Assembly (NCBI GenBank): GCA_964291315.2
Contig: OZ219753.1
Span: 2,176,001-2,240,000, forward strand
Reading direction: 5' to 3'
Length of the DNA: 64,000 nt
Source of the DNA: Candidatus Poribacteria bacterium
GTDB taxonomy: Bacteria > Poribacteria > WGA-4E > WGA-3G
Shown here: piece after piece, positions 15,529 through 29,442 of the stretch
Layout: each line of letters begins with the position of its first letter
Position numbering within the stretch: the first letter of the stretch is position 1
The notes under the pieces: generated by a model
Seen by the model: only the letters and a program-made list of their open reading frames with translations
What the model was told of the DNA's origin: nothing
The model's database searches: none
Position numbers and translations under genes: made by a program

Positions 15529-15624
15529 CACATATTACCACAGGCTGCTAGGCGATCTGTTCAATCTGATTTGAAACCCGAAAAAAGATGGTGTATAATT
15601 TTTAGAAACCGAAGCAACCGAGAT

Positions 15625-15747
15625 TAACGTGAGCTTGAAAAAGAGTGAGTAGGCTCTTTTGTAGCAGGGCTTCCTGTTCGGGTGTGCAGGCGCTCTTTAT
15701 TATTCGAAGTATTCGAAGCAGGTGCGAATATTATCAAGACCTCGTTA
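15625..15747 (-). mobile_element. MITE-like element, copy 1 (inverted orientation, shorter)
   Basis: Ends TAACGTGAGCTTGAAAAAGAG and ATTATCAAGACCTCGTTA are reverse-complement matches of the ends of the copies at 17010, 27508 and 46947. Confidence 0.55.
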
Positions 15748-16249
15748 AATTAAACGTTTCTGCAAAACCAAACGTGAGGAAAAAGATTTATGAAAATAAA
15801 CAAAAAAGTGTGGCTCGCTTGCCTTCTCTTTCTCTGTGGAGGTGCTATAGGGGCGTTTGCAACCCGATCTCGCTGCGACGCTTTGGGGAGCGCGTAGACT
15901 CAACGACTGGCTTGGTCTTTCTCTGCGCGGCTCATTCAGAACTTGGGGCAACATTACTGAATCCATGAAGCATGAAGACGAGCACAGCAATACAAGACGC
16001 GCCTCTCTATTAATTTCAATTACTTCGCCTATCCTCTGAAGAGATTTGCATAATGATTAGAGCAGATAAGACAAAGAACGAGGAGTGCGACTGTGAAAAT
16101 CGCACCCAACACAATAACGGCGGGAACTATCATTATAGCGAATACCATGTAGCTCTGGATTATATAGATGTGTTCAACATAGATATCTCCCGCTAACTCT
16201 CAAACGTCCTGAGTAAGACGTAAAACTGCTCATTTTAAGGAGAAATATC

Positions 16250-16888
16250 ATGAAAACCGCATTAGTATTGGTGGCCATAAGCACCACTCTCATAAGCACT
16301 GGATGCTTCGACAACAACGGGTGTAACAACCTACTGATTGAAGCAATGAAAACACAGGACAGGCAGACGGCTGCGGACAAAGCACATGACCTCATAGAGG
16401 ACACCGTCTGCTATAAGGAAATCAAGGACGGTATGGAAGCCATAGGGCAGCCTGAATCCGAATGCCCTATAGGGCTAAAGAACTTCGATATAACCCCCTA
16501 CATATACAGAGGAAGCGAACAGGGCAGAGTACCTGTCAAACTGATAGATGGTAACATAGAACGCATAGGGAGTTCTAGTAATATCAAACCTGCATTCTCA
16601 ATATACGACGGTGCTGGAGCATATATCCCTGCCAAGTACCGGTACTGGTCTTACCAGGGTAAACGCTGGGACGACGACCTATCTATGTGGAAAGTGATGT
16701 GGAAACTAAAAGTAGGTGAGTGCAAAGGCAGGGAGGTCAAGGAAGCTCACGAGGTACGGCAGAGACTTGCCAACGGGAGCATCAGAAACCCTAATCCTAC
16801 TCGCACAACCTCTACTAGCACCACCACTAATAAAGAGGAGGACAAACCTGACCTAATAGAAGGGACAGAAGTTCCCCCTTCACAATAA
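16250..16888 (+). CDS. Hypothetical lipoprotein
   Basis: 212 aa, AAGGAG RBS, lipobox-like ISTG-C, Thr-rich C-terminal tail. Confidence 0.7.
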   Translation: MKTALVLVAISTTLISTGCFDNNGCNNLLIEAMKTQDRQTAADKAHDLIEDTVCYKEIKDGMEAIGQPESECPIGLKNFDITPYIYRGSEQGRVPVKLIDGNIERIGSSSNIKPAFSIYDGAGAYIPAKYRYWSYQGKRWDDDLSMWKVMWKLKVGECKGREVKEAHEVRQRLANGSIRNPNPTRTTSTSTTTNKEEDKPDLIEGTEVPPSQ

Positions 16889-16971
16889 ACGCTATGACCT
16901 GCGCACGTCATAAAACTGCTCATACCTTATGAATAAAAGCGGGTGAAGATGAACAGATGTCATTTTTTAAG

Positions 16972-16999
16972 TTGACACATTTCTCTTTTCAATTATAAT
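16972..16999 (+). promoter_or_regulatory. Sigma70-like promoter upstream of the tubulin/actin/ZorAB-like operon
   Basis: TTGACA-16 nt-TATAAT, with a second TATAAT at 17004-17009 from a tandem TATAATTAAC duplication. Confidence 0.6.
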
Positions 17000-17009
17000 T
17001 AACTATAAT

Positions 17010-17218
17010 TAACGTGAGTTTGATAATTATTTGGTTCATCTTTGGATAAAGAGAGCCCTTGCACAGTTTAATAGGTTGTCTGAGAAACACCAAAGTGGCA
17101 CAGGAAACTAACAGCATATGATATAGGAACTGAAGACGCACAGGAAACCAACAGCATATGCTACAACTTACCGAACAGGCATATCAGTATAAGAGGAGTA
17201 TTTTATCGAGTCTACGTT
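17010..17218 (+). mobile_element. MITE-like element, copy 2
   Basis: TAACGTGAGTTTGATAATTATTTGGTTCATCTTTGGATAAAG...TTTTATCGAGTCTACGTT; internal 40-nt-period repeat GCACAGGAAACYAACAGCATATG. Confidence 0.7.
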
Positions 17219-17339
17219 GGTGATTTTGGAGTCAGGTGTACGGTATATTTCTCCAAGTAATCGAAACGTTGAAATAGCTCGGTAACATCGAATCAACAAA
17301 GCACCGGGGCGTTATACGTTGGTTCGGTACTTTTAAAGT

Positions 17340-18767
17340 ATGGAAACAAAAGAAATAAAGTGGGAAAATAATCTCTTACTATTATCCATCTATCTATGCT
17401 GCTCTATTTTTCTCACAAGCTGCGATACCGGAAAAGAGCTAGGTGTTCCAGAGTTTGAACCTGACACATCTGATTTAACGCCTGGCGATATATCCGACAA
17501 GCTTGTTGCGCGCATCTATTTCGACGCGACACTCTCAATGCAAGGTTTTGTGGTCCCGGCTCCAACGGATTACACCCGAATCTGTCAAGATTTAGACAGT
17601 GTTGTCTTAAGCAGTTGGAAAGGCGGACGATCAGAATTTTTTTGGTTTGGTGAAAAGGTTGAAAGTATTGATAGGTCCACCTACTTGCAAGCAGTATCTG
17701 CAGAATTTTACGAAAATAAACATATCTACAGAAAAACGTTTATTGAAAAAATTATTGCCCATGAAACTCGGCTGACCAACGATCAGGCAGGCATCAGTAG
17801 TGATTCTGAAGAATCAGCAGAGATAGCGGCAAGTAAAACTCCTGAAGCGTTAACAGAGGTGGCCACATCCACGGAAAACGTTGATGAGCGTGAAAAAGAA
17901 AACTCATTGGTTATTATTCTGACAGACCTTTTTCAAGATCAAGGCGATATAGCACTGCTGGTTCGACTACTCAAAGAAAAATATATTCAAAAGGGGCTTG
18001 AAGTGGGATTATTCGGTCTGCGCAGCCAATTTGACGGCACAGTCTACAACATCGGTATAGGTCAGAAACCACTCCCTCATCGCAGTAATCCGAATGACCC
18101 GGATACGTTTCGTCCCTTCTACCTTCTTGTGTTAGGCAGGCACGCCGATATTGCCCACTTTTTTACGAAATTAAAATCAAAGAACCCGGAAGCAAAAACG
18201 ATACTCTTTTCTCGGTATCTGGTTAGTCCCTTACTGTCGTTTGCCAACGCTGAAATATCAAAGAAGGGTAATTTAAATGAAAATACTTTCCATCCTATTG
18301 CAGATCCGAGCTTGAAACAGTATGAAATCGTGAAAAATGCTTATCGCGCTACAATCCCTGCTGAATTGACATACACCCCGTTGCCACATGCCATGTCCTT
18401 TGATCCCCAGAGGCTTGAGCCTGCTATTAAAGCGAAAGACAATTCGACTGGACAAACTAAAGAGAATTCAGGTGCTGCGAAGTGTCTGAAAGTGGAATCA
18501 GAGCTAACTAAAGAGAAACTCATGGTTGATTTTACTCTGGAATCCAGCAAACTGGAAAGCGCTATCTACCTTTATGAAGTGACGCTACACCCCAAAATTG
18601 AGGCATATCGGGAACCGGAGTGGTGTTCGGCTTGGGATATGGGATCGGGACGTGACGGTTCAAAAACACTTAATTTAGTTAATTTCGTTCAGGCTCTTTC
18701 ACAAGTAACAGTTCGAACACATCACCCTAAAATCGCCACATTTCACTTCTACGTCAAAAAAAGGTAA
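17340..18767 (+). CDS. Putative lipoprotein with vWA-like domain
   Basis: Lipobox FLTS-C; IYFDATLSMQGF (MIDAS-like DxTxS) and downstream IILTDLFQD strand. Confidence 0.7.
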   Translation: METKEIKWENNLLLLSIYLCCSIFLTSCDTGKELGVPEFEPDTSDLTPGDISDKLVARIYFDATLSMQGFVVPAPTDYTRICQDLDSVVLSSWKGGRSEFFWFGEKVESIDRSTYLQAVSAEFYENKHIYRKTFIEKIIAHETRLTNDQAGISSDSEESAEIAASKTPEALTEVATSTENVDEREKENSLVIILTDLFQDQGDIALLVRLLKEKYIQKGLEVGLFGLRSQFDGTVYNIGIGQKPLPHRSNPNDPDTFRPFYLLVLGRHADIAHFFTKLKSKNPEAKTILFSRYLVSPLLSFANAEISKKGNLNENTFHPIADPSLKQYEIVKNAYRATIPAELTYTPLPHAMSFDPQRLEPAIKAKDNSTGQTKENSGAAKCLKVESELTKEKLMVDFTLESSKLESAIYLYEVTLHPKIEAYREPEWCSAWDMGSGRDGSKTLNLVNFVQALSQVTVRTHHPKIATFHFYVKKR

Positions 18768-18783
18768 CGGAGTCACTATTGAA

Positions 18784-19266
18784 ATGAAACATGTTGGTCT
18801 TATCTGTGGTATCTTAGTTATTATCGGTTTATTTTTCCTTCTTGTTATATTAGGTGAAGTGCTTATTTTCGAGGCTTATCCACCGCAATTACCTGACACG
18901 GGCACAACGGAACAGCAACAACAGCAGTGGATGTGGATAGCGAGTTTTGAATCTTGGGCGAGGGTCTGTGTTGCGATTGCGGGAGCGGCAAGTCTTTTAT
19001 GGTATGGATTGGCACAATGGACTTTTAAAATTCGTAACGAAGGGAAAGGGTCTGAAAAACGCGTCGTTTGGGGTTTGTTGTTTCTTTTCCCAATTGTCGC
19101 CGGTATTGTAAGTTGTATCCTTGTTGACAGAGCTGAAAAAATGTGGATAGCATATCTGTTTTTCATCTTAAATGGTTTGATACCTTACTATCTTGCCACC
19201 CTACTATTTTCACCAGCGTCCTTTAAGTACATACCATGGGGTGCAAAACAGATTCGTCGTTGGTAA
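18784..19266 (+). CDS. Small four-TM membrane protein
   Basis: 160 aa, four hydrophobic segments, tightly spaced within the operon. Confidence 0.8.
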   Translation: MKHVGLICGILVIIGLFFLLVILGEVLIFEAYPPQLPDTGTTEQQQQQWMWIASFESWARVCVAIAGAASLLWYGLAQWTFKIRNEGKGSEKRVVWGLLFLFPIVAGIVSCILVDRAEKMWIAYLFFILNGLIPYYLATLLFSPASFKYIPWGAKQIRRW

Positions 19267-19290
19267 ACGTTTTTTATAGGAGGTAAATAA

Positions 19291-20721
19291 ATGGCATATT
19301 ATGCGATCGGTATTGGCGGGACAGGGGCAAAATGCCTTGAATCCCTGATTCATCTGGCAGCAGCAGGAATGATGCCAGATGACAAAGAGCTTTACACACT
19401 TTTTGTTGATCCTGATACTTCAAATGGAAGCCGTGCGCGGGTTGAGAAAACACTGGTTAATTATGTGAAATGCAAAGATCAACTTCAACTCGGAAACACA
19501 AACTTTTTGAAGACAAAAGTTATTCCTGCTAATCCTGTCCTTTGGACACCTTTTAAAAGTGCTAATCCAAGCTTAGAGGATTTCTTTCACAGTCCAATTT
19601 TTAAAGGTTCATCCGCAGCTAAGTTATTCGACGTGTTATATAGCAAATCAGAACAAGATATGCCCTTGGAAGACGGTTTTCGTGGTCACCCCTCCATTGG
19701 CTCAGCGGTCATGGCAAAGACAGTAGATTTGAAAGGAGACAAAACGTGGAGTTGGTTTAGTAAAGTAATTTCTAATGATCCAGAATCTAAAGTGTTCTTA
19801 GCAGGTTCTATTTTCGGCGGCACAGGCGCTTCTGGATTCCCTACGATCGCGCAGATCCTTAAAAATAATTTACCAGGTGTAACGCTCGGAGGGGCATTGA
19901 TTCTTCCGTACTTTAAGTTTGAGGATGCAGATGATGGGAAACTCAAAGCAAGATCTGCCGAGTTTTTGATGAATACACAAACCGCTTTGAAGCATTACCA
20001 TCTATCGAATAAAACAGGTTCTTATGATGCGGTCTACCTATTTGGCAATGAATCTCGAACGAATGTGGGAAACGCTCTCGGCGGTGGGCAGCAGGAGAAT
20101 GCTCCACATTTCATTGAACTCTATGCAGCCTTAGCAGCAATCGATTTTTTTGGTAAGAAACCAGATCAATCAGATGGCAAGGGCGGAACTCAATATTTCA
20201 TGACAGCCCGCAAAAAAGTTAACGCTCTTGACTGGAGCGATCTGCCAGATGGTAACAACGGTGATACAGTTCGTTCAAAAATCTTGCAACTGGAACATCT
20301 TGCTTTTGCGTATCTTAGCGTCTATCATCCCACAATTCTAGATATTAACAAAAACATAAAAGCGGCATACTGTGCTCCATGGTATGTCGATTTCTTTGAA
20401 CGACGTAAGGTCGGCATCGACGATACATTACTCAGCACCGTCGGTGAATACTGTAAAGATTTTTTGCTATGGATCGCCAACATACAAGGAAATTGTGGTG
20501 TCGGAGAAAAAATTAATCTCATTAAAAATAGGTATGGAGCGTACTCCAAGAAACAAAATGGTAGTCTTGTTCTCAAAAAATCCAAAGATTTTTCAGAATC
20601 TGACTGGTTGAACAAACTTTGGGAACGTATGTGTAATAGTCGGAGAAAAAACGGATATTCACAAGGCGTTGGAAAGTTTCTACATGCCTTATACCACAAT
20701 TGTCCTGATAAACATAACTAA
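19291..20721 (+). CDS. FtsZ/tubulin-like GTPase (divergent, Tubulin_2/FtsZ-like type; not cell-division FtsZ)
   Basis: N-terminal AIGIGGTGAK, GFRGHPSIG, signature SIFGGTGASG, LILPYF; AGGAGG RBS. Confidence 0.85.
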   Translation: MAYYAIGIGGTGAKCLESLIHLAAAGMMPDDKELYTLFVDPDTSNGSRARVEKTLVNYVKCKDQLQLGNTNFLKTKVIPANPVLWTPFKSANPSLEDFFHSPIFKGSSAAKLFDVLYSKSEQDMPLEDGFRGHPSIGSAVMAKTVDLKGDKTWSWFSKVISNDPESKVFLAGSIFGGTGASGFPTIAQILKNNLPGVTLGGALILPYFKFEDADDGKLKARSAEFLMNTQTALKHYHLSNKTGSYDAVYLFGNESRTNVGNALGGGQQENAPHFIELYAALAAIDFFGKKPDQSDGKGGTQYFMTARKKVNALDWSDLPDGNNGDTVRSKILQLEHLAFAYLSVYHPTILDINKNIKAAYCAPWYVDFFERRKVGIDDTLLSTVGEYCKDFLLWIANIQGNCGVGEKINLIKNRYGAYSKKQNGSLVLKKSKDFSESDWLNKLWERMCNSRRKNGYSQGVGKFLHALYHNCPDKHN

Positions 20722-20744
20722 TTAATTGGTTAGGAGGTTATATA

Positions 20745-23700
20745 ATGCCAAAACCACTTCTTCCTAGTTTGATACCAGGTAACAAGGTTACCGCTTTTGG
20801 TAACGCTGGAAAATGGGTTCCAAGAAACGCTTCTGAACTTAAACTCATTAGCGATGGGCTTAACGTTGCAAAACAGGGAGTGACCCCAACTGAGGTTGAT
20901 AGCATTCCGAGTATGTGGGCACGCCCTCTACTGTTCCAAATGGCGCTGTATGATGACAAACATCCAGTGCATACGCAAGTTTTAGGCGAATGGCGTGGAC
21001 TTTTAGCGATGTTGGCACTGAAAGAGTGGAGCGAGTTCCCCATAACTACAGAGCAAGTTGAGATTGATGTTGCCAAGAATCCAGAAGCAGCTGCGGATTT
21101 TCTTCGGGCCCTAGCGAAATTGCGACCAACAGACACGTTATCTGATCTGAGCTTACCAGATCCGGCGACATGGGAAGTCCTTAATATCATCCTGTTTGAT
21201 GGAGAGCCTATTGGTATTGCCTCACCAACTACTTTGGTGTGTACCTCAGTTAACTGTTTCGGTCGGATCTCGGACGTTCCCTGGTTTGACAATCGAAGAT
21301 TCCTCGTCGATCCAGTTCGGAAATTGAACGTTTCCGAGAAAGAAGCAGTTAAGTATTGGCTAACAACTCTTCAGGAAGGCACTGCAAAGCTTCCTATTCT
21401 TGACATAACAGTTAGCCTTAACAAACTTCTACTCAATTTTATAAATCAGTTAAATGTACCTTTAAAGGTGTTCGACTTTTCTATTACTAAACTCGGTTTG
21501 ACTCAAGACCTTTTTAAGTATATGAATCAACCGGTGGTAGCCCCCAAGGGGTCTAAATCGAGTATAAAACTTGTTCATTCCAAAAACAAAAAGTCAAAGG
21601 AAAATCTCCTCGTTTTCGATAAGGACATTCATAAAGCTTGGAGAGTCGAACCGCAAAATGTAATTGTTTGGAAAGGGAAGACACTTGCAACAAGTCAAAA
21701 TTCCAGTGGGACGCCCGAACTGGTACTTCCAGAAGATGTTGAGCTGCAAACTCCACAAGATTTTTTCATAGACAAACTTTTTGTCATCAAGCAAAAAAAA
21801 GCCTTCCATAAGGGCAGTACTTTAGCCTCTAAAGGCAGTAGGAATATTAATTTTAACGGAAGCCCGGTCACACCAATTCTACCGCTCACTACGAAATTGC
21901 TAACCTATCTTGATGTAGAAGATTTAAATGATAGAATTACTTTTAACCAGCTGAATGACCGTATTGTTGTGGAGTTGCGTCTCACTTTGAACGGTATCGA
22001 TGGGAAGGGGAATTCAGATTTTGTTATTTCTAAAGAATATGACAAAGCAAACGTTAGGACCATTGCGACCGCACCAGTTTTGGCGGTTTGGCCGAACTTC
22101 AGAACTCAAGGTTGGAAGGCTTACTATACCTATTTCACAACAGCCGATCAAGACGCATTTTACGCCAAACCCCTCCCGGCAGCAAAAGAGTCGGATACGC
22201 TGCCTGATCCGCTAACGTTTCAAGATAATAGCGGAAATGTTAAGAAAGAGACTACAAAAACGGAACATTTTCCTGAAGCGATGCTATGTGAATATAAAGG
22301 GGCTAAGGCGGGAATTTTGCTCATTTCAGCACCAGAAGCCTTAAATGCTAATACTAATAAGGCTAATACTAATAAAGAAACAATATGGACCGTAGGGGTA
22401 GATTTCGGCAGCAGCAGCACTACAGTCTATAGGTATAGCAACGCTGATAATGAGCCTCAGAGCGTAACTTTTGATAAGAAACACATTTTACGTATTACCG
22501 ACCCTCTTACTTCCTCAAAAATCGCATTCTATAAGGATTTTCTCTCTCATGAAAGCAAATCGACACCGTTCTTCAGCCTCTTTCAAACACTCCAAACTGT
22601 AAAACCCGATGAACCCCTCCTTGATGGACATATCTACTTTCCTGATAATCATAATGATATTTCTTCTGATAAACGCATTGTTAGCGATCTCAAATGGTCT
22701 AGTACAATAAACCGGAGGCACATTCAGGTTTTTCTCAAACAACTCTGTCTTCAAACCGCCGCTGAGGCTGTTAACGATGGGGCCCAAAAGATAGATTGGA
22801 ATTTTTCTCATCCGCTTGCCTTTACAAGACAGGATAAAGGACAATTTGAACTGATTTGGAAAAGCGTCGGAGCAGCTTGTGGGAGCGCGACTGGCGTGAA
22901 TCAAAAGGTTGTGACCCCGGCCCAATCAGAAAGTGTGGTCACCGCAAAATTCTTTGCAAGCACCTTACAAAATCCAACAGCTATTGGCGATTTTACCAGC
23001 GGGGCAGTCTGCATCGATATTGGAGGAGAAACCTCAGATATCTCAATTTGGCAAAACAATAAACTGTACTGGCAAACGTCTATCAAATTTGCAGGACGGC
23101 ATATTTTTTTAAATCTGCTCAAAGAAAATCCCGAATTTCTGAAAGAACTTGGTGTGAACGAGAACGGGATCAAATTGTTAAAAGAAATCAAGGACGACAA
23201 GTTTTATGCTCAAGCGGACGCTTTAATTGAAACGGAAGGTCAAGATTGGTTGAGCGAACTCCCTAACGTAGAGAACCCATCCATTATCCAACCGTTTCTT
23301 CAACTCATTTCACTTGGGGTTTCCGGTCTTTTATACTATGTCGGGCTACTTCTCACTTACCTTTCTAAAGTCAAACCTGAATCTGATCTTAAGTCTGAAA
23401 TCCCCAGTATATACATCGGCGGTAACGGATCAAACATTCTACATTGGATGGCAGATGGCAGTTTCGATCCTGACAACTCTACAGCGCAAGATTGTAGAAA
23501 GTACCTTAAAAAGGTCATCTGCAAAGCATCAGGATTTGCCCCAGATGATAATAATCGCGATATAGAGATTAGTCACTCCCCAAAAAAGGAGGCTGCTTAT
23601 GGATTAGTCATTGACATTGACGAAACAGAACTCGATTTTGATCCAGATACTCAATTTGACGTTTTAGCTGGTGAAACTTTTACAGAGAATGGAATAGAGT

Positions 23701-24026
23701 ATCCATGGACTGAAGTTCTTACTGCCGAACGACTACATAACCGCTTATCGATTCCTAAGAGGTTCGACAAAATTCAACACTTTATAGACAGTTTCAACCA
23801 AAATTTAGGTGAAGGGATTAAGAAAGTATCCCTGAAGGAAACTGTAAGTGGCAAAGAAGGCGACTCCGCTACTGTTAGCGATGCTATGTTTGCAGAGCTG
23901 GAAAAAGTTTTCCAAGCTTTTAGTAATAGGGACCCAGGAAAAATCTCTATTGAACCGTTATTTATTCTCGCGTTAAAAGAATTACTGAGAGCAAAAACAA
24001 GACGATGGATAAACATGGATGGATAA
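20745..24026 (+). CDS. Large protein with C-terminal actin/Hsp70-fold (FtsA/SrfB-like) ATPase domain
   Basis: 1093 aa; phosphate-1 VGVDFGSSST, connect SESVV, phosphate-2 CIDIGGETSDISIW, adenosine IYIGGNGS; N-terminal ~540 aa of unknown function (IPSMWARPLLF, EWRGLLA). Confidence 0.85.
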   Translation: MPKPLLPSLIPGNKVTAFGNAGKWVPRNASELKLISDGLNVAKQGVTPTEVDSIPSMWARPLLFQMALYDDKHPVHTQVLGEWRGLLAMLALKEWSEFPITTEQVEIDVAKNPEAAADFLRALAKLRPTDTLSDLSLPDPATWEVLNIILFDGEPIGIASPTTLVCTSVNCFGRISDVPWFDNRRFLVDPVRKLNVSEKEAVKYWLTTLQEGTAKLPILDITVSLNKLLLNFINQLNVPLKVFDFSITKLGLTQDLFKYMNQPVVAPKGSKSSIKLVHSKNKKSKENLLVFDKDIHKAWRVEPQNVIVWKGKTLATSQNSSGTPELVLPEDVELQTPQDFFIDKLFVIKQKKAFHKGSTLASKGSRNINFNGSPVTPILPLTTKLLTYLDVEDLNDRITFNQLNDRIVVELRLTLNGIDGKGNSDFVISKEYDKANVRTIATAPVLAVWPNFRTQGWKAYYTYFTTADQDAFYAKPLPAAKESDTLPDPLTFQDNSGNVKKETTKTEHFPEAMLCEYKGAKAGILLISAPEALNANTNKANTNKETIWTVGVDFGSSSTTVYRYSNADNEPQSVTFDKKHILRITDPLTSSKIAFYKDFLSHESKSTPFFSLFQTLQTVKPDEPLLDGHIYFPDNHNDISSDKRIVSDLKWSSTINRRHIQVFLKQLCLQTAAEAVNDGAQKIDWNFSHPLAFTRQDKGQFELIWKSVGAACGSATGVNQKVVTPAQSESVVTAKFFASTLQNPTAIGDFTSGAVCIDIGGETSDISIWQNNKLYWQTSIKFAGRHIFLNLLKENPEFLKELGVNENGIKLLKEIKDDKFYAQADALIETEGQDWLSELPNVENPSIIQPFLQLISLGVSGLLYYVGLLLTYLSKVKPESDLKSEIPSIYIGGNGSNILHWMADGSFDPDNSTAQDCRKYLKKVICKASGFAPDDNNRDIEISHSPKKEAAYGLVIDIDETELDFDPDTQFDVLAGETFTENGIEYPWTEVLTAERLHNRLSIPKRFDKIQHFIDSFNQNLGEGIKKVSLKETVSGKEGDSATVSDAMFAELEKVFQAFSNRDPGKISIEPLFILALKELLRAKTRRWINMDG

Positions 24027-24083
24027 ACCAGCTTGTATTTTCGAACAGGGGCATAACATAGCATATATGTTTTAAGGGGACTC

Positions 24084-25220
24084 ATGGAACAACTTAAAGA
24101 TCTGCTAAACTTAACCACAGCGATCGCACCAATTCTCGCTATTTTAGTAGTTGCGATCATTGGTTGTTCGGCTTTTTATTTTTTAAGGAATCGGCAAGAA
24201 ACTGCTAACGAAGCTAAAAAAGTCGGCAACCCTAACAGTGGAGAGAAGCCTGAAATTGTAGTTTTCCTACGGCCGCATGCTGCATGTGTTCAATGCCTGA
24301 TGCTTTGTATAGAGAACATAGGGACTAGGACAGCCTATAATGTCCAGTTTGGACCCTTAGCTTCCGCCCCGTTTATCAGGTCTTCTAATATCGGCAATGT
24401 AAAGATTTTTAAGGAAAACGATTTTCTTCGGAGGGGAATCAGCTGTTTTGGCGCTGGACAGAAGATCGAGCTATTCCTAATCCGTTTAGTAGGCGACTTC
24501 CCTGAAGAACTGAAACAACCTCTTGAAATCTCTGTTACTTACAAGGATTCGCTGAACTACACGTACAAGAATGGGTATAAACTGGACTTTAGCGAATTTG
24601 AAAGCCTTGTAGAAATCGAGTCAATAAAAGAACAGACGATATCTGACTTGAGATCTCTGCTTCACGTAATACAGAAAAACTTTAGTCAAGTTGATGAAAG
24701 TATTGAACCTCCCAGGACACCCCAAACCTCGAAATCTAAGGATAGTGAAATTCCGCACGAAGAAGAGGAAGAATGCCGCCAAATCGACCACAATGGGCAA
24801 GCCAACTTATTAACACCAGAGCTTCAGCAACTCGTTGAGTTATACAATGCAAGTGATGATGCCACATTACGGCAAAATCATAAGCACCAAGTTTCAATTA
24901 GCGTTAGTAATGATGTAGAACTTTTCAACAATCCAGATAAAGAAGCACTTTTCCAAACTAAGCCAAATGGCAGCTTGGTTGCCTACAACATTGATTCAGA
25001 AAATTCATATGCGGTTGTACCATTTTTGGGTTGCGTTCTGCAAAATGATCTCTATAATTCTGGTGCTTTCCGTCAGGTTTTTAAGTGCCCTAATTTTGAT
25101 TCAAAACGCAAGTATCATATGAAAGTTATTCGCCCCGCCATGTTTACACTGGATCCTGTAAACGAGAAATGGACACTTCAAGAAATGGGAGAATTAGAAT
25201 TAACGGTACACGACAATTGA
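24084..25220 (+). CDS. Membrane-anchored hypothetical protein, two soluble domains
   Basis: 378 aa, single N-terminal TM, Pro/Glu linker between two globular regions. Confidence 0.75.
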   Translation: MEQLKDLLNLTTAIAPILAILVVAIIGCSAFYFLRNRQETANEAKKVGNPNSGEKPEIVVFLRPHAACVQCLMLCIENIGTRTAYNVQFGPLASAPFIRSSNIGNVKIFKENDFLRRGISCFGAGQKIELFLIRLVGDFPEELKQPLEISVTYKDSLNYTYKNGYKLDFSEFESLVEIESIKEQTISDLRSLLHVIQKNFSQVDESIEPPRTPQTSKSKDSEIPHEEEEECRQIDHNGQANLLTPELQQLVELYNASDDATLRQNHKHQVSISVSNDVELFNNPDKEALFQTKPNGSLVAYNIDSENSYAVVPFLGCVLQNDLYNSGAFRQVFKCPNFDSKRKYHMKVIRPAMFTLDPVNEKWTLQEMGELELTVHDN

Positions 25221-25362
25221 TCGAAAAAAGATATCTGCCTACGAAAACGCAGGAGCACATAGCACAAATAACACCTGTTTTAAAAATCTGTATCACATTA
25301 GCTGTAGCATCCATCCAAAACCGGGCGCATTGTGTGTGATGCCTTAAATCAATAAAACGCTT

Positions 25363-27474
25363 ATGCCTTTCGAATATTTCTCTCCCACAAACGCTTTTGC
25401 TTCAGGAATTGTAACCTTCTTGCAATATTTCTTTGTGTTTTGGTTTGTAGGATTAGTAGGTTATGGGATCCGGTTGCTCCAAACAAGCAAACACATCGAA
25501 AAAAAGCAGAATATCCAGCGACTCGTCGATGCTCGACGAAAACGGAATGTTGGACGCGAAGATAACGACGTGGAAACCGATGCTGATACGGTGTTCCACG
25601 AATTTTTAAATGAACAATCTCTCAACAAAAGTTCTCCTATAACAAGACATCTCAAAGCGATTTTCTTAGCTGGCTGGGAGGAGAGTCGTCTTGAAGTCAG
25701 TGAATTAATTAATCACACCACTTCCGATCTGTTTAGGTGGAACAGTCTGTTTCGTTCTGTATTGGCGGTTTTCATCGTGATCGGATTGCTCGGCACGCTC
25801 TTTGGACTTACGGATAGTTTAACAGAACTATCTCCGGCTTTAAGAGAGAGTACCGCAGACACGGCCGCGACAGAAAACAGCCAAAGAATGACCCAGGCGT
25901 TAGGCGATCTCATGGATGACATCAAAGGGGCTTTTGCCCCAAGCATTTGGGGGATTATTTTTACGATCGTCGGCGTGCTTCTTTACGGATTTTACCTTCA
26001 AATCGCTTGCCATCCTGTTAAGACTACTCTGGAGCGGTTGACGTTGACCGTTTGGGTTCCGCAGCTCTACCCAACAACTTCCCAAAAACTTATCCAAACC
26101 CTGCAGCAGAGCGAGTCTCAGATGCAAAAGGGGTTTGAGACCGCAGCACAGTTCAGTGAATCTGTCAAAAAAGTCCATGGCAACATAGATGAATTCAATG
26201 CAAATCTCACGCAAGCTGCATCTATTACACAACCGCTCTCCAATTCGGTGACGCAAATTAACAAGGCGGCATTGGACATTAGTACTGCAGCGGATGTGCT
26301 GAATACAGGTTTTACGGAGAACCTTGACAAATTTTTAAGAGAATTTGCAGCTAGTGTTGCCCATCTCGCCGGTTTTCAAGATGAGATTCGGAACCTCCAC
26401 CAACAATTTCAAGACTCAGCGAACCAAAAATTAGACCAGCAAACACAAAAATTGGAGGAACAGAATCAAAATCTTACTACAAACTTAGATGTCTTGAAAA
26501 ATTACAAGGAACTGTACGTTGATTCCTGTCAACAAATGGAGAAGACCCTTCAAGAGTTTCTTAATAACACTATCGAAGCAAACACCCATATAGAAGCTAC
26601 CAATCGTGAGTTCCTTGAAGGCATAAATGCGGCCAATCGCGAATGGCTTGCAGAAATACAAGTGCAGTTGAAGGCAGATCTTGCAATTATGGAACCAACC
26701 TTGAAAAAGGAGTTAGAAACGCTGACCGTGCAATTAACTACGGATCTCAAAGAGGTTCAAGGCACTCTCGACCAAAGGTTGGAAGCACTTACCAACCAAT
26801 TAAATTTTTTCCAATTACCTATTGAAAAAGCTGCCGATCATATTGAAAGGATTATCGAAAGTTTTGCTCGGATAATGGAGGGAATAGTTAGAGATCTACA
26901 ATCACAGTTCCAAAAGCAGAGCGAAGAAATAAAAGAACAAAATGAAAGTTATGGGGAGCAGCTTACGGGAGTCAAACATCTCAATGAAAGTGTTGTAGGC
27001 TTGTTGAAACAATTAGACGAAAGCAGTAAAAATCAGAAAGGTGCAGTTAATACACTAAACGGTCATGTGGGCGGACTAACCACAGACATTAAAACCCTCC
27101 ATGTTGCAATCAACGCCTTTACATCTGATTCAGGAGAACTCAGTCAATCGATCGGGGCGATTAAAGGGGATATCGAAAAGTTAGGCACGGCTTCACAGCA
27201 ATTCGTGGAAAAGGTGGAAAAAGCCGATGTTACCCCGTTGACAGCTAATATTGGAAAACTCAATGCCGCTATCAACGAGATTTCTGGACATTCACAAGTT
27301 TTAGCAAACGCTGTTAATGGATTGGCGAAACAAATAAATTCACCGGACAGGGATTCTTCTAACCTAACGCAACAAAAGATTCCCTTCCTAGAAAGAATAC
27401 GAATTCTATTTCGCGGAAGATCGACTTCAACACAACCCCGTGCTAAACCCGAATCGAAGAAACAACGTAAGTAA
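25363..27474 (+). CDS. ZorA-like MotA/TolQ/ExbB proton-channel protein with long helical tail
   Basis: Three TMs including IGLLGTLFGL and AFAPSIWGI, then ~450 aa of Q/E/L/N-rich heptad-like sequence. Confidence 0.8.
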   Translation: MPFEYFSPTNAFASGIVTFLQYFFVFWFVGLVGYGIRLLQTSKHIEKKQNIQRLVDARRKRNVGREDNDVETDADTVFHEFLNEQSLNKSSPITRHLKAIFLAGWEESRLEVSELINHTTSDLFRWNSLFRSVLAVFIVIGLLGTLFGLTDSLTELSPALRESTADTAATENSQRMTQALGDLMDDIKGAFAPSIWGIIFTIVGVLLYGFYLQIACHPVKTTLERLTLTVWVPQLYPTTSQKLIQTLQQSESQMQKGFETAAQFSESVKKVHGNIDEFNANLTQAASITQPLSNSVTQINKAALDISTAADVLNTGFTENLDKFLREFAASVAHLAGFQDEIRNLHQQFQDSANQKLDQQTQKLEEQNQNLTTNLDVLKNYKELYVDSCQQMEKTLQEFLNNTIEANTHIEATNREFLEGINAANREWLAEIQVQLKADLAIMEPTLKKELETLTVQLTTDLKEVQGTLDQRLEALTNQLNFFQLPIEKAADHIERIIESFARIMEGIVRDLQSQFQKQSEEIKEQNESYGEQLTGVKHLNESVVGLLKQLDESSKNQKGAVNTLNGHVGGLTTDIKTLHVAINAFTSDSGELSQSIGAIKGDIEKLGTASQQFVEKVEKADVTPLTANIGKLNAAINEISGHSQVLANAVNGLAKQINSPDRDSSNLTQQKIPFLERIRILFRGRSTSTQPRAKPESKKQRK

Positions 27475-27507
27475 ATCGATTAAAAGCAATTTCATAAGTC
27501 CTTAAAA

Positions 27508-27729
27508 TAACGCGAGTTTGATAATTATTTGGCTCATCTTTGGATAAAGCGGATCCTTGGAGAGCCTGACAGGTTGTGTGAGAAGCGACGAAGAGGCACA
27601 AGAAATCCAACAGACTATGCTACAAGAACTGAAGACGCACAGGCTGACAGCCTATGCTACAAGGGCATGGCACAGACTGAGAGGTTATACTATAAAGGTA
27701 CTCCTCTAATTTTTTTTCAACTTACGTTA
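27508..27729 (+). mobile_element. MITE-like element, copy 3, between zorA-like and zorB-like genes
   Basis: TAACGCGAGTTTGATAATTATTTGGCTCATCTTTGGATAAAG...TTTTCAACTTACGTTA; internal GCACA...CAG.CTATGCTACAAG repeats. Confidence 0.75.
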
Positions 27730-27745
27730 AAATAGAAGGATATCC

Positions 27746-28480
27746 ATGGAAGAAAATACATTAGATTTTAATTTTTGGCCCTCCTTTTCGGACCTAATGC
27801 TGACGCTTGTGCTGATATTGATTATCGTTGTTTTTGCTGTTATCGTGGCTTTTTCTGTTAAACCGGTCGATCCTTCCTCCGAAGGGACGGTCGATCTGAC
27901 AGAAGTTGAACAGAGGCAAATCGGAATGATCCATGCAATCGCTGAACAGTACAATGTTGATCCTGAAGAAGTAGGCGACGGTTCCTTTGTGATTCGAATT
28001 TACCTCGAAGATGGCGGTTACACCGAAATTCTCATTCAAAATGAACCTACACTTCAACGTTATAGCTTTAGCGACCGCATTCTGTTTGAGCCCGATGAAC
28101 ACTATCTTAACGAAGATGGAAAAGAGACACTTCTCACCGTTGGTCTTCAAATAAAAAGAAATCTGAACGACATCCGTGAGATACAGATTCAAGGTCATGC
28201 GGATCCTGATCCGCCTGCCTTTGTGCCCTCTAACTTACATCTGGCAGCATTACGGGCAATTGAGGTATACACATTTCTACAGGAACAAGTCCGCATAGAT
28301 CCCGCGCGGCATCTGATGTCAGCAACCTCTTTTGGTGAATATAAACCTGTTCGCCGCTCAGATCAGGATAGAACCTATACGCCCGAAAAACTTGAAAGGG
28401 ATAACCGCACTAGGACGTTGAAAGCCCAGAATCGTCGGATAGAAATTTTGCTGTTTTATCCGCCCGAGCAAACAGACTAA
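27746..28480 (+). CDS. ZorB/MotB-like OmpA-domain membrane protein
   Basis: FWPSFSDLM TM helix with the conserved Asp; OmpA-like IQGHAD, NLHLAALRA, SFGEYKP, NRRIEI. Confidence 0.88.
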   Translation: MEENTLDFNFWPSFSDLMLTLVLILIIVVFAVIVAFSVKPVDPSSEGTVDLTEVEQRQIGMIHAIAEQYNVDPEEVGDGSFVIRIYLEDGGYTEILIQNEPTLQRYSFSDRILFEPDEHYLNEDGKETLLTVGLQIKRNLNDIREIQIQGHADPDPPAFVPSNLHLAALRAIEVYTFLQEQVRIDPARHLMSATSFGEYKPVRRSDQDRTYTPEKLERDNRTRTLKAQNRRIEILLFYPPEQTD

Positions 28481-29442
28481 TGGATGGAGAGTTGATTATG
28501 TATCGTATTAGATTGCTTGTTGCCTTGTTCTTGGTCAATTTCGTTATCACTGCCAACAGCACCGCAAGCGATGCTCTTAGCGGCGTTCGGATCGTAGAGG
28601 GGATTGTCCAGCAGCGCCCTCCGAACACGCGACGCACCCTCGGGAAACGATATGTCTGGAATTTCAAGGGAAAATCTTATACCGCACTAATGACAATAGA
28701 TATAGAAAAGTATAATAGCTACGATGGAAAAGAACGTTACGACATTCCGCGCTTGGTAGAAGAGGGGAGAAAGACCATCGGAAATCTCACTCGTGAATTT
28801 CGAAACATGTTCAAACGGCATCGCGCGTGGTCGAAGCGCGATCATATCGACTTTGTTCTCAGCTTCGTCCAATCCCTGCCTTATACCCACGATAACGTGA
28901 CCACAGGTTACGATGAGTTTCGGCGCTATGCGGTTGAAACTTTGATTGAGGGTGGTGGAGATTGTGAAGACACCACTATCTTGGTTGCGGCGATCCTACG
29001 AGGTTTAGGTGAGAAGACGGTACTCATTTTCATGCCAGGGCACATCGCCCTCGGAGTGAGTGGTAATTTCGCGGGTGCCTCTGTTACCTATGATGGTACG
29101 AAGTACTATTACTGTGAAACAACTGGCACCGGCTGGACAGTAGGCGACCTGCCACCATCCTTTCAGACAACTGTGACTAACATTTTCCCGTTAGCTCCCT
29201 CGAAAATAGGAAGCACACCGAGGCCGGGCCGCGTGACAACTCCAGAACCCACGTCTCCGTCGCAACCTTCCTCAATAGAAACTACGATGCCTGAAGCCTC
29301 TTCATCTGAAGTCGAATCCGAAGGCACACAATCAAACGGCAGACTCGTCACCGCGATCGTTATGTTCTTTATCCTCATCGGTTTGGGAATTTCTACTGTA
29401 TATTTCCTGCGCCGCTCTATTAAAGAACAACGTGAATATTAA
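28480..29442 (+). CDS. Transglutaminase-like cysteine peptidase domain protein with signal peptide and C-terminal TM
   Basis: SFVQSLPY, GGDCEDTTIL, GHIALG, YYCETT (Cys-His-Glu); start either 28480 (TAATG overlap with the zorB-like stop) or 28498. Confidence 0.8.
   Translation: MDGELIMYRIRLLVALFLVNFVITANSTASDALSGVRIVEGIVQQRPPNTRRTLGKRYVWNFKGKSYTALMTIDIEKYNSYDGKERYDIPRLVEEGRKTIGNLTREFRNMFKRHRAWSKRDHIDFVLSFVQSLPYTHDNVTTGYDEFRRYAVETLIEGGGDCEDTTILVAAILRGLGEKTVLIFMPGHIALGVSGNFAGASVTYDGTKYYYCETTGTGWTVGDLPPSFQTTVTNIFPLAPSKIGSTPRPGRVTTPEPTSPSQPSSIETTMPEASSSEVESEGTQSNGRLVTAIVMFFILIGLGISTVYFLRRSIKEQREY

Follow-up and report, generated by a model that had tools for sequence, protein, structure and literature searches.

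Tubulin-fold GTPase and actin-fold ATPase genes stand side by side in the FtsZ-FtsA pair, in which ftsA precedes ftsZ in dcw clusters and FtsA binds FtsZ through the C-terminal FtsZ peptide. A more divergent group, FtsZl1 (Tubulin_2, PF13809), comprises proteins of about 1000-1130 aa in which a tubulin domain is combined with a long coiled coil and a helical domain. The available text of PMC2875224 gives as an operon example a vWA gene (Ava_1847), FtsZl1 (Ava_1848), B7 (Ava_1849) and a COG1360 gene (Ava_1850), and there Makarova and Koonin (2010) interpret such operons as membrane remodelling. Tubulin homologues with vWA proteins, and also HSP70 homologues, were predicted in GTPase-centric conflict systems, which according to the available text of PMC7159879 (Kaur, Burroughs, Iyer and Aravind, 2020) are interpreted as NTP-dependent, assembly-forming immune systems. 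In the Zorya defence system (Hu et al. 2024, PMC11946911) a MotA-type protein carries a long cytoplasmic tail; the available texts of this study and of Mariano et al. 2025 (PMC11890865) make no mention of tubulin or FtsZ.

The window analysed here, a stretch of 64,000 nucleotides from Candidatus Poribacteria bacterium, harbours a membrane cassette of eight genes spanning 17340-29442, with a tubulin-like gene and a giant ATPase gene as its middle. Its features are the following:

16972..16999, + strand: promoter-like site TTGACA-16-TATAAT (12/12), a consensus match only, 340 nt 5′ of the first cassette gene
17340..18767, + strand: A475, predicted lipoprotein of 475 aa with vWA-like (MIDAS-like) motifs and one N-terminal hydrophobic segment
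18784..19266, + strand: B160, membrane protein of 160 aa with 3-4 hydrophobic helices (hydropathy)
19291..20721, + strand: TUB, divergent tubulin/FtsZ-fold GTPase of 476 aa with a helical C-terminal domain (edge of Pfam Tubulin_2, AlphaFold model)
20745..24026, + strand: ACT, ASKHA (actin/Hsp70-fold) ATPase of 1093 aa (motifs, model, PDB scan)
24084..25220, + strand: E378, single-pass membrane protein of 378 aa, N-terminal TM at 13-31
25363..27474, + strand: ZorA-like protein, MotA/ExbB-type membrane domain and coiled-coil tail of ~450 residues (Pfam, PADLOC)
27746..28480, + strand: ZorB-like protein, single TM helix with Asp16 (FSDLM) and OmpA-type peptidoglycan-binding domain (Pfam, PADLOC)
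28480..29442, + strand: H320, 320 aa, signal peptide, transglutaminase-like Cys motif GGGDCEDT and C-terminal TM anchor (hydropathy, weak profiles)

Both open reading frames of the pair, their sizes, the 23 nt between them and the GGTGASG motif of TUB were as given in a preliminary description of this DNA. The setting in a cassette with a ZorAB-like motor had been missed there. The start of the H320 gene overlaps the stop of the ZorB-like gene. In the region 36 promoter-like sites were found versus a shuffle mean of 27.1, and the 12/12 match is unique to 16972..16999. The GC content of the cassette block is 0.41-0.42 versus 0.46-0.51 in the flanks, which encode CBM9, DUF6785, SDR and NosD-like proteins, a glycosyltransferase and an epimerase. 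As had been noted before, the pair lies outside any dcw cluster: no dcw genes were found beside it, the neighbours being unrelated metabolic and membrane genes. A canonical FtsZ is encoded ~97 kb away on the same contig (Tubulin 162.9 bits, FtsZ_C 88.1 bits), and the earlier view of a non-division pair was borne out.

Residues 173-184 of TUB read SIFGGTGASGFP, in which GGTGASG replaces GGGTG(S/T)G, and its G-box (T1) is GIGGTG at 7-12. Among 20 TUB family members, GIGGTG 7-12 and SIFGGTGASG 173-182 are invariant, and in hhalign T4 and the following PYFKF aligned with GGGTGTG and PFNFEG in the canonical FtsZ that this genome encodes. In Pfam, Tubulin_2 (PF13809) scored 27.9 bits versus a cut-off of 27, over residues 163-235 only, Tubulin (PF00091) remained at 26.2 bits, below its cut-off of 33, and FtsZ_C (PF12327) gave no match. 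Precomputed annotation places PF13809 on 117 of the 120 best TUB homologues; these 120 are 417-523 aa long, save three shorter entries that cover 61-74% of the query. The AlphaFold model (mean pLDDT 73.4, pTM 0.83) was compared with 48,161 PDB representatives in a full scan. Ranks 1-17 were all chains of the tubulin/FtsZ superfamily (Z 15.4-10.6, model residues 1-330), among them CetZ as top match (3zid_B, Z 15.4, rmsd 3.4, 212 aligned), FtsZ (2vaw_A, Z 14.2), PhuZ (Z 14.1) and TubZ (3m8k_A, Z 10.6); Rossmann-type reductases ranked after them (Z at most 9.8). In Foldseek, FtsZ, CetZ and tubulins also led, though weakly (best E 5.1e-4, TM 0.2-0.35). Scan and Foldseek bear out the tubulin-like fold first suggested for this protein, and motifs and model together strongly indicate a GTPase of tubulin fold whose G-box and T4 motifs are intact.

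In the model of TUB a helical domain takes the place of the region after H7, and residues ~325-470 are mostly helical. The C-terminal extension had been described as helical and ~190 aa long; the former agrees with the model, but only about 150 aa extend beyond the last aligned residue. No long coiled coil is seen in the model, helices only. The T7 synergy loop motif NxDxxD is absent from TUB, and an invariant W315-x-D317-L318-P319 follows the predicted H7. We also considered TUB as a canonical FtsZ and rejected this, given the PF00091 score below cut-off, the lack of an FtsZ_C match and the lack of a dcw setting.

As far as the available text of PMC2875224 goes, TUB and FtsZl1 share a divergent tubulin fold without the FtsZ/tubulin C-terminal domain or a clear T6-T7, coexistence with canonical FtsZ, a patchy spread, and a vWA gene (putatively vWA-like in the cassette) upstream and a MotB/OmpA-type gene downstream. 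In contrast to FtsZl1, TUB has 476 aa, no coiled coil and a marginal PF13809 match, and it has a fixed ASKHA partner of 1000-1150 aa, whereas the FtsZl1-associated families A1-A2 and B1-B9 described there include no actin/Hsp70-fold member. The cassette is a variation on the FtsZl1/vWA/OmpA theme.

In ACT, residues 551-562 are VGVDFGSSSTTV, residues 756-768 are CIDIGGETSDISI and the third nucleotide motif is IYIGGNGS at 889-896. G551, D553, G555, T559, D758, G760, G761, T763, G893 and G895 are invariant in 24 ACT family members. All 50 listed matches of the ACT model (pLDDT 70.9, pTM 0.66) in the full PDB scan have the ASKHA fold (Z 12.9-8.5, residues 544-965): MreB (4cze_A, Z 12.9), BiP (5e84_A, Z 12.4) and FtsA (7q6d_A, Z 12.0), with EutJ, BeeR, ParM, PilM and sugar kinases further down to Z 8.5. 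Foldseek returned the Hsp70 NBD, BeeR and MreB (E 2.5e-8 and up). The actin-fold C-terminal half with its three nucleotide motifs, read earlier from the letters, is thereby confirmed in the model, and motifs and model strongly indicate an ASKHA ATPase at residues ~545-960 with intact phosphate-1, phosphate-2 and adenosine motifs. Residues 1-170 are predicted to bind TUB, ~340-530 are beta-rich, and a helical C-terminal end follows the ASKHA part. For residues 1-540 no Pfam, NCBIfam, PADLOC or PHROG family was found, as expected from the earlier remark that this part was unrecognised; residues 1-340 folded alone gave a pLDDT below 60. The ACT family comprises 2818 representative clusters at E <=0.001 (1092 at 1e-30), its members are nearly all about 1050-1150 aa long, and no Pfam domains are annotated on the 120 best homologues.

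An identity of ACT as FtsA was rejected. PF14450 (20.5 versus 31.8 bits) and TIGR01174 (22.4 versus 175.85 bits) stayed far below their cut-offs and covered only 33-36 residues of the phosphate-2 motif, and the Hsp70 NBD, MreB, EutJ and ParM are equally close to the ATPase; the label 'FtsZ/FtsA-like' for the pair does not hold. Several fold neighbours as near to ACT as the filament actins, namely the Hsp70 NBD, EutJ, PilM and sugar kinases, are non-polymerising. The structure prediction and alignment against FtsZ, TubZ, CetZ, FtsA and MreB that had been proposed were run, with a tubulin fold and an ASKHA fold as outcome; the SrfB family (PF07520), also named for comparison, gave no match on ACT at E <=0.01 in Pfam. 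The sole trace of SrfB was an Atlas feature lead (rank 6, score 0.81, family on 19% of a cluster).

Among 92 related loci, ACT lies directly 3′ of TUB in 74 of the 75 with at least 400 bp downstream of TUB, with a median gap of 5 nt. A search for longer relatives yielded five fusion proteins of TUB and ACT type (1341-1664 aa), all from metagenome gene calls. Two of them were aligned: P0243 matches TUB over 5-488 (E 9e-36) and ACT over 503-1350 (E 1e-28), and P0241 matches ACT over 507-1310 (E 4e-84). A complex of TUB with ACT residues 1-520 was predicted with a score of 0.85 versus 0.00 for the best of three controls; 116 of 157 solved complexes attain this mark, as do 2 of 215 mismatched pairs, counts that are a rough guide here, where own alignments were used. 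The runs share at least 89% of contacts with a partner pLDDT of at least 71, and sequence searches with TUB and ACT found no solved complex of this kind in the PDB. Because of the adjacency, the five fusions and the complex score, TUB and ACT very probably work together.

In the predicted complex, ACT residues 2-170 cover the loops round the nucleotide site of TUB. The conserved N-terminal ~170 residues would wrap the T4- and T5-equivalent loops (assigned by alignment to FtsZ), H7 and the post-H7 segment; by our own reading of the model, the T3-like loop may also lie under this wrap. The earlier suggestion that a partner acts on the GTPase gains support from this arrangement. Like FtsZ and FtsA, TUB and ACT are encoded side by side and are predicted to bind each other. 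The gene order is reversed, however, and the predicted contact is made by a 170-residue N-terminal region of ACT on the GTPase domain. Other differences are the lack of an FtsZ_C match, the FtsA scores below cut-off, the lack of a dcw context and the separate FtsZ of the genome.

The ZorA-like protein has three TM segments by hydropathy. Its MotA_ExbB match at residues 106-211 scored 23.3 bits versus a cut-off of 22.9 (Pfam), coiled-coil families match the tail over about 230-670, and PADLOC ZorA models matched with 4.4e-11 and 1.2e-8. In the ZorB-like protein, Asp16 adjoins the TM at 17-35, OmpA scored 38.6 bits versus 27.2 (Pfam) and PADLOC ZorB1 reached 4.4e-15. To our knowledge, MotA-type proteins whose tail extends far into the cytoplasm are not known from systems other than Zorya. 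Going by the available text of PMC11946911, the ZorA tail (223-729) is matched here by a tail at ~240-690, and in both systems the motor includes a MotB-type protein that combines a TM aspartate with a peptidoglycan-binding domain of OmpA type, and soluble cytoplasmic partners are encoded alongside the motor. Unlike Zorya types I-III, the cassette lacks ZorC, D, E, F and G, as PADLOC gave no match on the other seven proteins scanned; its partners are the tubulin-fold/ASKHA pair and periplasmic proteins. ZorAB-like genes accompany the pair in 7 of the 92 related loci, plus the phylum's own clade. This rarity marks the motor as an addition, in whose absence the core has to function.

The non-NTPase partners in the cassette are all membrane or periplasmic proteins by hydropathy. 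Of the 61 related loci whose upstream sequence extends over 2500 bp or more, 58 have the A475 gene; Cys28, D62, S66, M67, G69, D196 and L197 are invariant and T195 is nearly so in 22 homologues. In hhalign the A475 family aligned with 12 vWA domains of its own genome, weakly (E 0.0021, probability 13.6, 131 columns), with DxTxS on DxSxS and TD on SD. B160 has no family in Pfam, PADLOC or NCBIfam, and related loci hold a B160 homologue, or a small protein of similar size, at the same position. Across 13 cassettes, E378 is the most variable component (26-55% identity, often in the C-terminal third only) and H320 the best conserved (69-77%). E378 has no family save a weak phrog_11802 match (2.5e-6), and in some loci it occurs as 2-4 tandem paralogues (L022, L023, L024, L027, L030, L044, L086). 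Profiles on H320 are faint: LapG reached 0.0015 (NCBIfam), and Transglut_core stayed below threshold in three of four homologues (E 0.012-0.045).

The cassette was found in 25 of the 176 genomes of the phylum, among them 11 of the 65 of the window's genus, some genomes carrying 2-3 copies. The eight genes have an identical order in G001, G009, L011 and 13 of 14 further phylum loci; these cassettes have flanking genes that differ from those of the window and sit in various genomic places. Distant cassettes on IMG/VR contigs are accompanied by integrases and an excisionase (L089, L090), by replication genes (L093) or by terminase, portal and baseplate genes (L096). Conflict-type domains lie near 7 of the 21 loci with scanned flanks, a raw count with no background rate alongside: HNH, HEPN, CHAT-TPR, Mrr with SIR2, AAA_35/WD40, and Schlafen with SbcC-like and SNase.

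We infer that TUB and ACT form the cytoplasmic core of a mobile envelope-spanning cassette, whose role is most probably defence or envelope surveillance; for this reading we estimate a probability of about 0.5. We favour such a role because of the patchy spread, the mobile-element neighbours, the variable and tandem E378 and the ZorAB-like features. Against it we count that the motor accompanies the pair at few loci, that the ZorA-like and ZorB-like proteins score far below curated NCBIfam cut-offs (antiphage_ZorA_2 29.8 of 100 bits, ZorA_4 19.1 of 500, ZorB1 17.2 of 400), that PADLOC models matched no cassette component besides the ZorA-like and ZorB-like proteins, that the cassette holds no nuclease, NADase or other recognised effector, that A475 had no vWA match in Pfam or PDB profile searches, and that housekeeping genes (photosystem, tRNA synthetase, NADH dehydrogenase) are neighbours at many related loci. 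The GTPase-centric conflict systems, in the available text of PMC7159879, resemble the cassette in having tubulin homologues, NTPases of HSP70 fold and vWA proteins (in part extracellular on TM proteins) and in being variable and patchy. They differ in having a TRAFAC-class GAP1-N2 GTPase and FNIII-repeat proteins, whereas no Walker A motif occurs in any cassette protein. Moreover, their tubulin and HSP70 (with GrpE) themes do not overlap, whereas the cassette unites a tubulin fold and an ASKHA fold and has a ZorAB-like motor attached.

For the mechanism, TUB-ACT may act at the inner membrane as a switch or assembly unit that uses two nucleotides (GTP and ATP), and B160 and E378 would connect it to the periplasmic vWA-like lipoprotein and the transglutaminase-like protein. 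A proton-driven motor of ZorAB type would in this lineage be anchored to peptidoglycan, with its long coiled-coil tail reaching into the cytoplasm, and might report envelope disturbance (e.g. phage entry) to the cytoplasmic module, as in Zorya. The GTPase-activating contact would be supplied or blocked by ACT, not by a second TUB, and E378 and H320 are candidates for the output, which might be a barrier, a toxic assembly or the remodelling of membrane or wall. We propose only tentatively the full form of this scheme, an immune or envelope-surveillance machine in which the motor signals to TUB-ACT and the N-terminal domain of ACT stands in for the following tubulin subunit and governs the hydrolysis of GTP.

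The alternative that fares best, although we consider it rather unlikely, is a cytoskeleton for membrane remodelling or envelope maintenance, in which TUB and ACT shape membrane or wall with the periplasmic partners, a MotAB-like pair supplies proton-motive energy and conflict plays no part. The membrane or periplasmic nature of the non-NTPase partners fits it, as do the lack of a recognised immune effector in the cassette (PADLOC) and those related loci that hold an ARC6-like IMS with VanY, DUF805 membrane proteins or Trypsin_2 peptidases. So do the FtsZl1 operons in the available text of PMC2875224, which encode a vWA protein and a 'flagellar motor protein' of MotB type along with the membrane protein B7. 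It is harder to reconcile with a cassette spread patchily within one genus and found at differing genomic places, with integrases and phage genes beside its distant versions and with a highly variable and multiplied E378; in addition, a MotA-type protein whose tail extends far into the cytoplasm is documented from Zorya defence alone (PMC11946911, available text).

A second, non-division pair of FtsZ/FtsA type co-polymerising into a filament, for cell shape or alternative division, is improbable. Both folds come from filament-forming superfamilies, the nucleotide motifs are intact and binding is predicted, but TUB has no FtsZ_C and no recognisable T7 motif, its post-H7 region is a helical domain, the FtsA models fail and the genome keeps a canonical FtsZ. 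Moreover, the predicted interface covers TUB loops needed for protofilament contact which, if the interface is right, favours a heterocomplex or cap and argues against a co-polymer. The pair is also missing from most genomes of the genus and so cannot serve a general cell-biology function.

We regard as very improbable a surface-motility or adhesion machine like the myxobacterial Agl-Glt (TolQR/MotAB-type motor, actin fold, GTPase, vWA lipoprotein adhesin): the long coiled-coil tail is a feature of Zorya and not of Agl, the motor is lacking at most loci with the pair, and no homology to Glt, Agl or MglA was seen. The parallel is one of folds only (MotAB-type motor, ASKHA protein, GTPase, vWA-like lipoprotein), CglB being the vWA lipoprotein of the gliding machine in the available text of PMC9946355. 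Least credible of all is a TubZ/ParM-like segregation or positioning apparatus serving an integrative element or phage itself, since a DNA-binding adaptor is absent, the conserved partners are a lipoprotein and membrane proteins, and in the window, G001 and G009 chromosomal metabolic genes surround the cassette with no integrase or replication gene near (and no tRNA gene in the window), even though TubZ, PhuZ, ParM and AlfA are structural neighbours and distant cassettes lie on phage-like contigs.

The ACT family is large and unnamed, and it accompanies, almost one to one, one branch of those tubulin relatives that are understood least. Together with the fusions, the predicted complex offers a testable idea of how an actin-fold protein may regulate a tubulin-fold GTPase without an activating domain of its own. 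The ZorAB-like link adds a new partner set to the question of how Zorya-type tails signal into the cytoplasm, and the cassette is a tractable eight-gene test of two proposals for FtsZl1-type proteins, 'membrane remodelling' (2010) and 'conflict system' (2020). If a motor-to-TUB-ACT machine were true, it would be the first direct, obligate heterocomplex of a tubulin fold with an ASKHA fold and the first 'cytoskeletal' effector or switch in a Zorya-like system, and it would assign a function to a protein family of thousands of members.

The preliminary description had set two large open reading frames side by side and was exact in their coordinates and sizes; both lie on the + strand, 23 nt apart:

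19291-20721, + strand: TUB, a 476-aa ORF encoding a tubulin/FtsZ-fold protein
20745-24026, + strand: ACT, a 1093-aa ORF encoding a giant protein with an ASKHA (actin/Hsp70-fold) domain

In Pfam, TUB matched Tubulin_2 (PF13809) at the very edge (27.9 bits against a cut-off of 27) and Tubulin under the cut-off (26.2 bits against 33), and FtsZ_C was absent. PF13809 is present in the precomputed annotation of 117 of the 120 best TUB homologues, and at least 1420 proteins were related to TUB at E ≤ 0.001 (8000 candidates scored). In an alignment of 20 members, the motifs GIGGTG (7-12), GFxGxPSIG (129-137), SIFGGTGASG (173-182), LPYF (205-208), NTQ (228-230), HFxELYxAL (273-281) and, after H7, WxDLP (315-319) are invariant. 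The tubulin-like fold proposed earlier was borne out when the structure model of TUB (pLDDT 73.4, pTM 0.83) was compared with all 48,161 PDB representatives. Ranks 1-17 were exclusively tubulin/FtsZ-superfamily chains, headed by CetZ (Z 15.4, rmsd 3.4, 212 residues), FtsZ (Z 14.2) and PhuZ (14.1), with Odin- and Asgard tubulins, gamma-tubulin, BtubA and TubZ down to Z 10.6; Rossmann-type reductases came after them (Z ≤ 9.8). The PDB fold matches span residues 1-330. Foldseek agreed with the tubulin fold, weakly (best E 5.1e-4), and a PDB sequence search gave no match. In a profile alignment with FtsZ of the same genome, S4-T4-H4 and S5-T5 were in line. Past the predicted H7 (274-288), the TUB model lacks the beta-sheet C-terminal domain, and residues 325-470 are mostly helical. 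A clear T7 loop had not been seen by eye; no NxDxxD occurs in the sequence, and the invariant WxDLP could stand in for it. The canonical FtsZ of this genome is a separate protein of 430 aa (C4:2,078,686-2,079,978, on the contig where the window starts at C4:2,176,001), scoring 162.9 bits for Tubulin and 88.1 bits for FtsZ_C.

The phosphate-2 motif was the sole part of ACT recognised in sequence libraries. FtsA models reached 20.5 of 31.8 bits (PF14450) and 22.4 of 175.85 (TIGR01174), none of 120 listed homologues carries a Pfam domain, and a PDB sequence search gave chance MHC matches only. The family is conserved over its full length, with invariant residues from P7 to K1078 (24 sequences, 41-65% identity to ACT). 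At least 328 proteins were related to ACT at E ≤ 0.001 (8000 candidates scored); in a representative library the family counts 2818 members at E ≤ 1e-3, 2077 at 1e-10 and 1092 at 1e-30, nearly all of 1050-1150 aa. The ACT model (pLDDT 70.9, pTM 0.66) is confident in a beta-rich domain (~340-530) and in residues 545-1093, and poor in residues 1-340. The actin-like fold also held, since all 50 listed rows of the PDB scan were ASKHA proteins, matching residues 544-965. The best were MreB (Z 12.9), BiP (12.4), FtsA (12.0), EutJ and BeeR (both 11.7), followed down to Z 8.5 by Hsp110, ParM, PilM, actins, Arps and sugar kinases; Foldseek found Hsp70 NBDs, BeeR and MreB, with E from 2.5e-8. ACT is thus an actin/Hsp70-fold ATPase whose catalytic motifs are intact, and it cannot be placed with FtsA or with any branch that forms filaments. 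In the ESM Atlas, the best score for residues 1-540 was 0.88, to an unnamed cluster, and there was a weak SrfB lead. A strongly hydrophobic stretch of 19 residues (852-870; window 23297-23354, within PFLQLISLGVSGLLYYVGLLLTYL) sits in a helix of the ASKHA insert that is long and confidently modelled, and could be either buried or a membrane-binding element.

To place the pair among its relatives, we used 92 loci carrying TUB relatives (1 Clostridia MAG contig, 2 congeneric genomes, 9 IMG/VR contigs and 80 metagenome loci, the best 80 of 562 confirmed matches), whose ORFs were sorted into the families of the window by phmmer and one round of hmmsearch. ACT comes next after TUB on the same strand in 74 of the 75 loci having at least 400 bp past TUB, with a median gap of 5 nt. 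Three loci have large gaps of 1117-1495 nt, each with small genes between; they are the only ones in which TUB and ACT lie more than 240 nt apart:

L010:12226-12705: HNH endonuclease-family gene between TUB and ACT
L051:11543-12910 and L083:9258-9818: Uma2 endonuclease-family genes between TUB and ACT

Five longer TUB relatives of 1341-1664 aa were found. The two that were aligned, both from metagenome gene calls, are TUB-ACT fusions: in P0243, residues 5-488 match TUB 4-468 (E 9e-36) and 503-1350 match ACT 2-792 (E 1e-28), and in P0241, residues 507-1310 match ACT 5-808 (E 4e-84).

The complex of TUB with ACT 1-520 was predicted with an alignment for each partner. It scored 0.84, 0.85 and 0.86, against 0.00 for the best of three controls. 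Of 157 solved complexes 116 attain this mark, as do 2 of 215 mismatched pairs, figures that are rough here because our own alignments were used. The runs share at least 89% of contacts, with a partner pLDDT of at least 71. The prediction supports binding of TUB to ACT 1-520, and it is unlikely to reproduce a structure already solved, since sequence searches with TUB and ACT found no similar complex in the PDB. On the TUB side, the predicted interface comprises residues 99-143, 180-189 (just past T4), 205-207 (T5), 226-241, 249-256, 275-285 (H7) and 300-324; we read GHPSIGS, within 99-143, as a T3-like loop. On the ACT side it comprises residues 2-9, 18-42, 51-70, 103-128 and 146-170, a stretch that holds the invariant G22, W24, IPxxWARPLLF (54-64) and GEWRGLL (81-87) and that is disordered when ACT is folded alone. 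If the prediction is right, the N-terminal part of ACT would cover both the post-H7 segment of TUB and the loops on its nucleotide side. FtsZ and tubulin contact the next subunit through these surfaces, so the predicted interface argues against a plain TUB homopolymer. The earlier guess that GTPase activation may come from a partner fits this predicted position. The proposal of a non-division FtsZ/FtsA-like pair thus survives in part: TUB and ACT are not the division pair, they very likely bind each other, and the partner is positioned to act on the GTPase; the FtsZ/FtsA likeness does not hold in any family sense.

The pair alone is not the whole unit, which is a cassette of eight envelope-related genes (17340-29442). 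TUB and ACT lie in a block of low G+C at ~16-28 kb of the window (0.41-0.42, versus 0.46-0.51 on either side), beyond which the genes are ordinary (CBM9, DUF6785/DUF6784, short-chain dehydrogenase, NosD-like, glycosyltransferase, epimerase). By tblastn, the eight genes are kept in order at two congeneric loci, while the flanks are not shared. The same genes in the same order were found in metagenome locus L011. Of 14 further loci from genomes of the phylum, 13 also have this arrangement; in the remaining one, a distant copy in another family, A475, TUB and ACT alone matched. Besides TUB and ACT, third and fourth in order, the cassette encodes:

A475 (475 aa): predicted lipoprotein, invariant Cys28, D62xTxS66...T195D196 motifs
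B160 (160 aa): 3-4 membrane helices
E378 (378 aa): single TM helix
ZorA-like (703 aa): MotA/ExbB domain and ~450-residue coiled coil; PADLOC ZorA, 4.4e-11 and 1.2e-8
ZorB-like (244 aa): TM helix beside Asp16, and OmpA domain; PADLOC ZorB1, 4.4e-15
H320 (320 aa): signal peptide, GGGDCEDT motif, C-terminal anchor; Transglut_core below threshold

Aligned with vWA domains of the same genome, A475 has its MIDAS positions in register, weakly (E 0.0021, probability 13.6). A PDB search with its profile gave nothing meaningful, Pfam found no common family over 22 homologues, and the ESM Atlas returned unnamed clusters only. PHROGs gave no match for A475, B160, TUB, ACT or H320, and a Walker A motif is absent from every protein of the cassette. 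Among the components, H320 varies least over 13 cassettes (69-77% identity) and E378 most (26-55%, often in the C-terminal third only). No similarity was seen between H320 and the neighbour with a cysteine-proteinase fold in L083.

A candidate sigma-70 promoter with a 12/12 consensus match lies at 16972-16999. Rfam found no family over 15400-30000, apart from one chance microRNA match (E 0.62). A non-coding element of ~165 nt contains ACAGCATATGCTACAA-type sub-repeats and belongs to no Rfam family. It lies upstream of A475 (17005-17170), as an 80% identical second copy between the ZorA-like and ZorB-like genes (27505-27665), and at about 46942-47039. We considered it as a shared leader and take it instead as a dispersed repeat, because it has 42 matches genome-wide and none in related loci. 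Directly upstream of the cassette, the low-GC block holds a 212-aa ORF (16250-16888) with a lipoprotein-like N-terminus, without a family or a counterpart in related loci; a 107-aa ORF (15645-15968) comes before it. Just upstream of the island, 12721-14649 encodes a polytopic membrane protein (642 aa) that belongs to DUF6785/DUF6784, an uncharacterised family (505 and 99 bits). No tRNA was found in the window, and no flanking direct repeats point to an integration site.

Across the 92 loci, the constant core consists of A475, a small membrane protein, TUB and ACT, with A475 in 58 of the 61 loci having at least 2500 bp upstream. The region past ACT is variable:

E378-like genes, single or in 2-4 tandem copies
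unknown 500-720-aa proteins, then DUF805 membrane proteins (marine clade)
ARC6-like IMS protein and VanY
cysteine-proteinase-fold protein
OmpA/MotB-type proteins (viral contigs)

ZorA-like genes occur in 7 of the 92 loci (L007, L008, L010, L011, L014, L015 and L028) and all through the clade of this phylum, which makes the motor a lineage-specific add-on and the core the older part. Upstream, several loci carry a divergent Trypsin_2 peptidase:

L036:4036-5001, L046:1073-2131, L060:3243-4304, L081:4738-5808: Trypsin_2-type peptidase
L032:7030-8073: Trypsin_2-type peptidase with PDZ

It adjoins the lipoprotein gene in marine and cyanobacterial loci, divergently oriented in four; in these clades the system may include it as an additional component. 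At one phylum locus (L123, G135:C21:1161228-1162665), TUB is matched in two successive frames (1-236, then 235-489), so that this copy is probably frameshifted. At another (G009:C201:66149-67654), one TAG was reported inside the TUB match, yet a 500-aa ORF is open there.

Of 176 genomes of the phylum, 25 carry the cassette; in the window's genus it is present in 11 of 65 genomes, and in a sister genus in 13 of 40. Certain genomes carry it in two or three copies, and insertion contexts differ. This is the distribution of an accessory, mobile trait. Distant lipoprotein-TUB-ACT cassettes (26-32% identity) were found on IMG/VR contigs: directly after integrases and an excisionase (L089, L090), beside replication genes (L093), beside tail genes and a methyltransferase (L094), and past terminase, portal, adaptor and baseplate genes (L096), which fits accessory genes carried by prophages or integrative elements. 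Conflict-type domains lie beside 7 of 21 flank-scanned loci, a count without background control; they comprise HNH, HEPN_Swt1, CHAT-TPR, Mrr_cat with SIR2_2, Schlafen with SbcC-like and SNase and, in two loci, AAA_35/WD40. Many related loci have housekeeping neighbours.

The nearest description is that of the FtsZl1 family with vWA, OmpA/MotB-type and membrane partners (PMC2875224), whose supplement lists vWA, FtsZl1 (1085 aa), B7 and a 'flagellar motor protein' for Anabaena variabilis. TUB differs in size and architecture, with 476 aa and no coiled coil, and the associated families given in that source include no actin-fold partner. Conflict systems have been predicted in which a TRAFAC GTPase stands with tubulin and vWA, or with HSP70 and GrpE (Kaur et al. 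2020, PMC7159879); unlike those described there, the cassette has no TRAFAC GTPase and joins both NTPase folds. Our literature searches found no description of a TUB-ACT pair and no link between Zorya-type motors and tubulin-like proteins, 'Zorya' and 'tubulin-like' never appearing together; 'tubulin' and 'FtsZ' are absent from the main texts of PMC13069673, PMC11890865 and PMC11946911. What is new is that the ASKHA partner is fixed, that a heterocomplex is predicted, that fusions occur and that a ZorAB-like motor is attached.

ZorAB is described as a peptidoglycan-anchored, proton-driven 5:2 motor, and its ~70-nm ZorA tail is proposed to carry an envelope-perturbation signal to cytoplasmic effectors (PMC11946911). 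The main rival to a role in defence is membrane remodelling, the older reading from PMC2875224. We keep it because the cassette contains no recognised effector and its PADLOC matches are limited to ZorA and ZorB, no other component matching a defence model. The mobile distribution and the ZorAB mechanism favour a defence or envelope-surveillance system, which is the best reading of the cassette. In such a system, the TUB-ACT complex would act as a cytoplasmic NTP-dependent switch or assembly.
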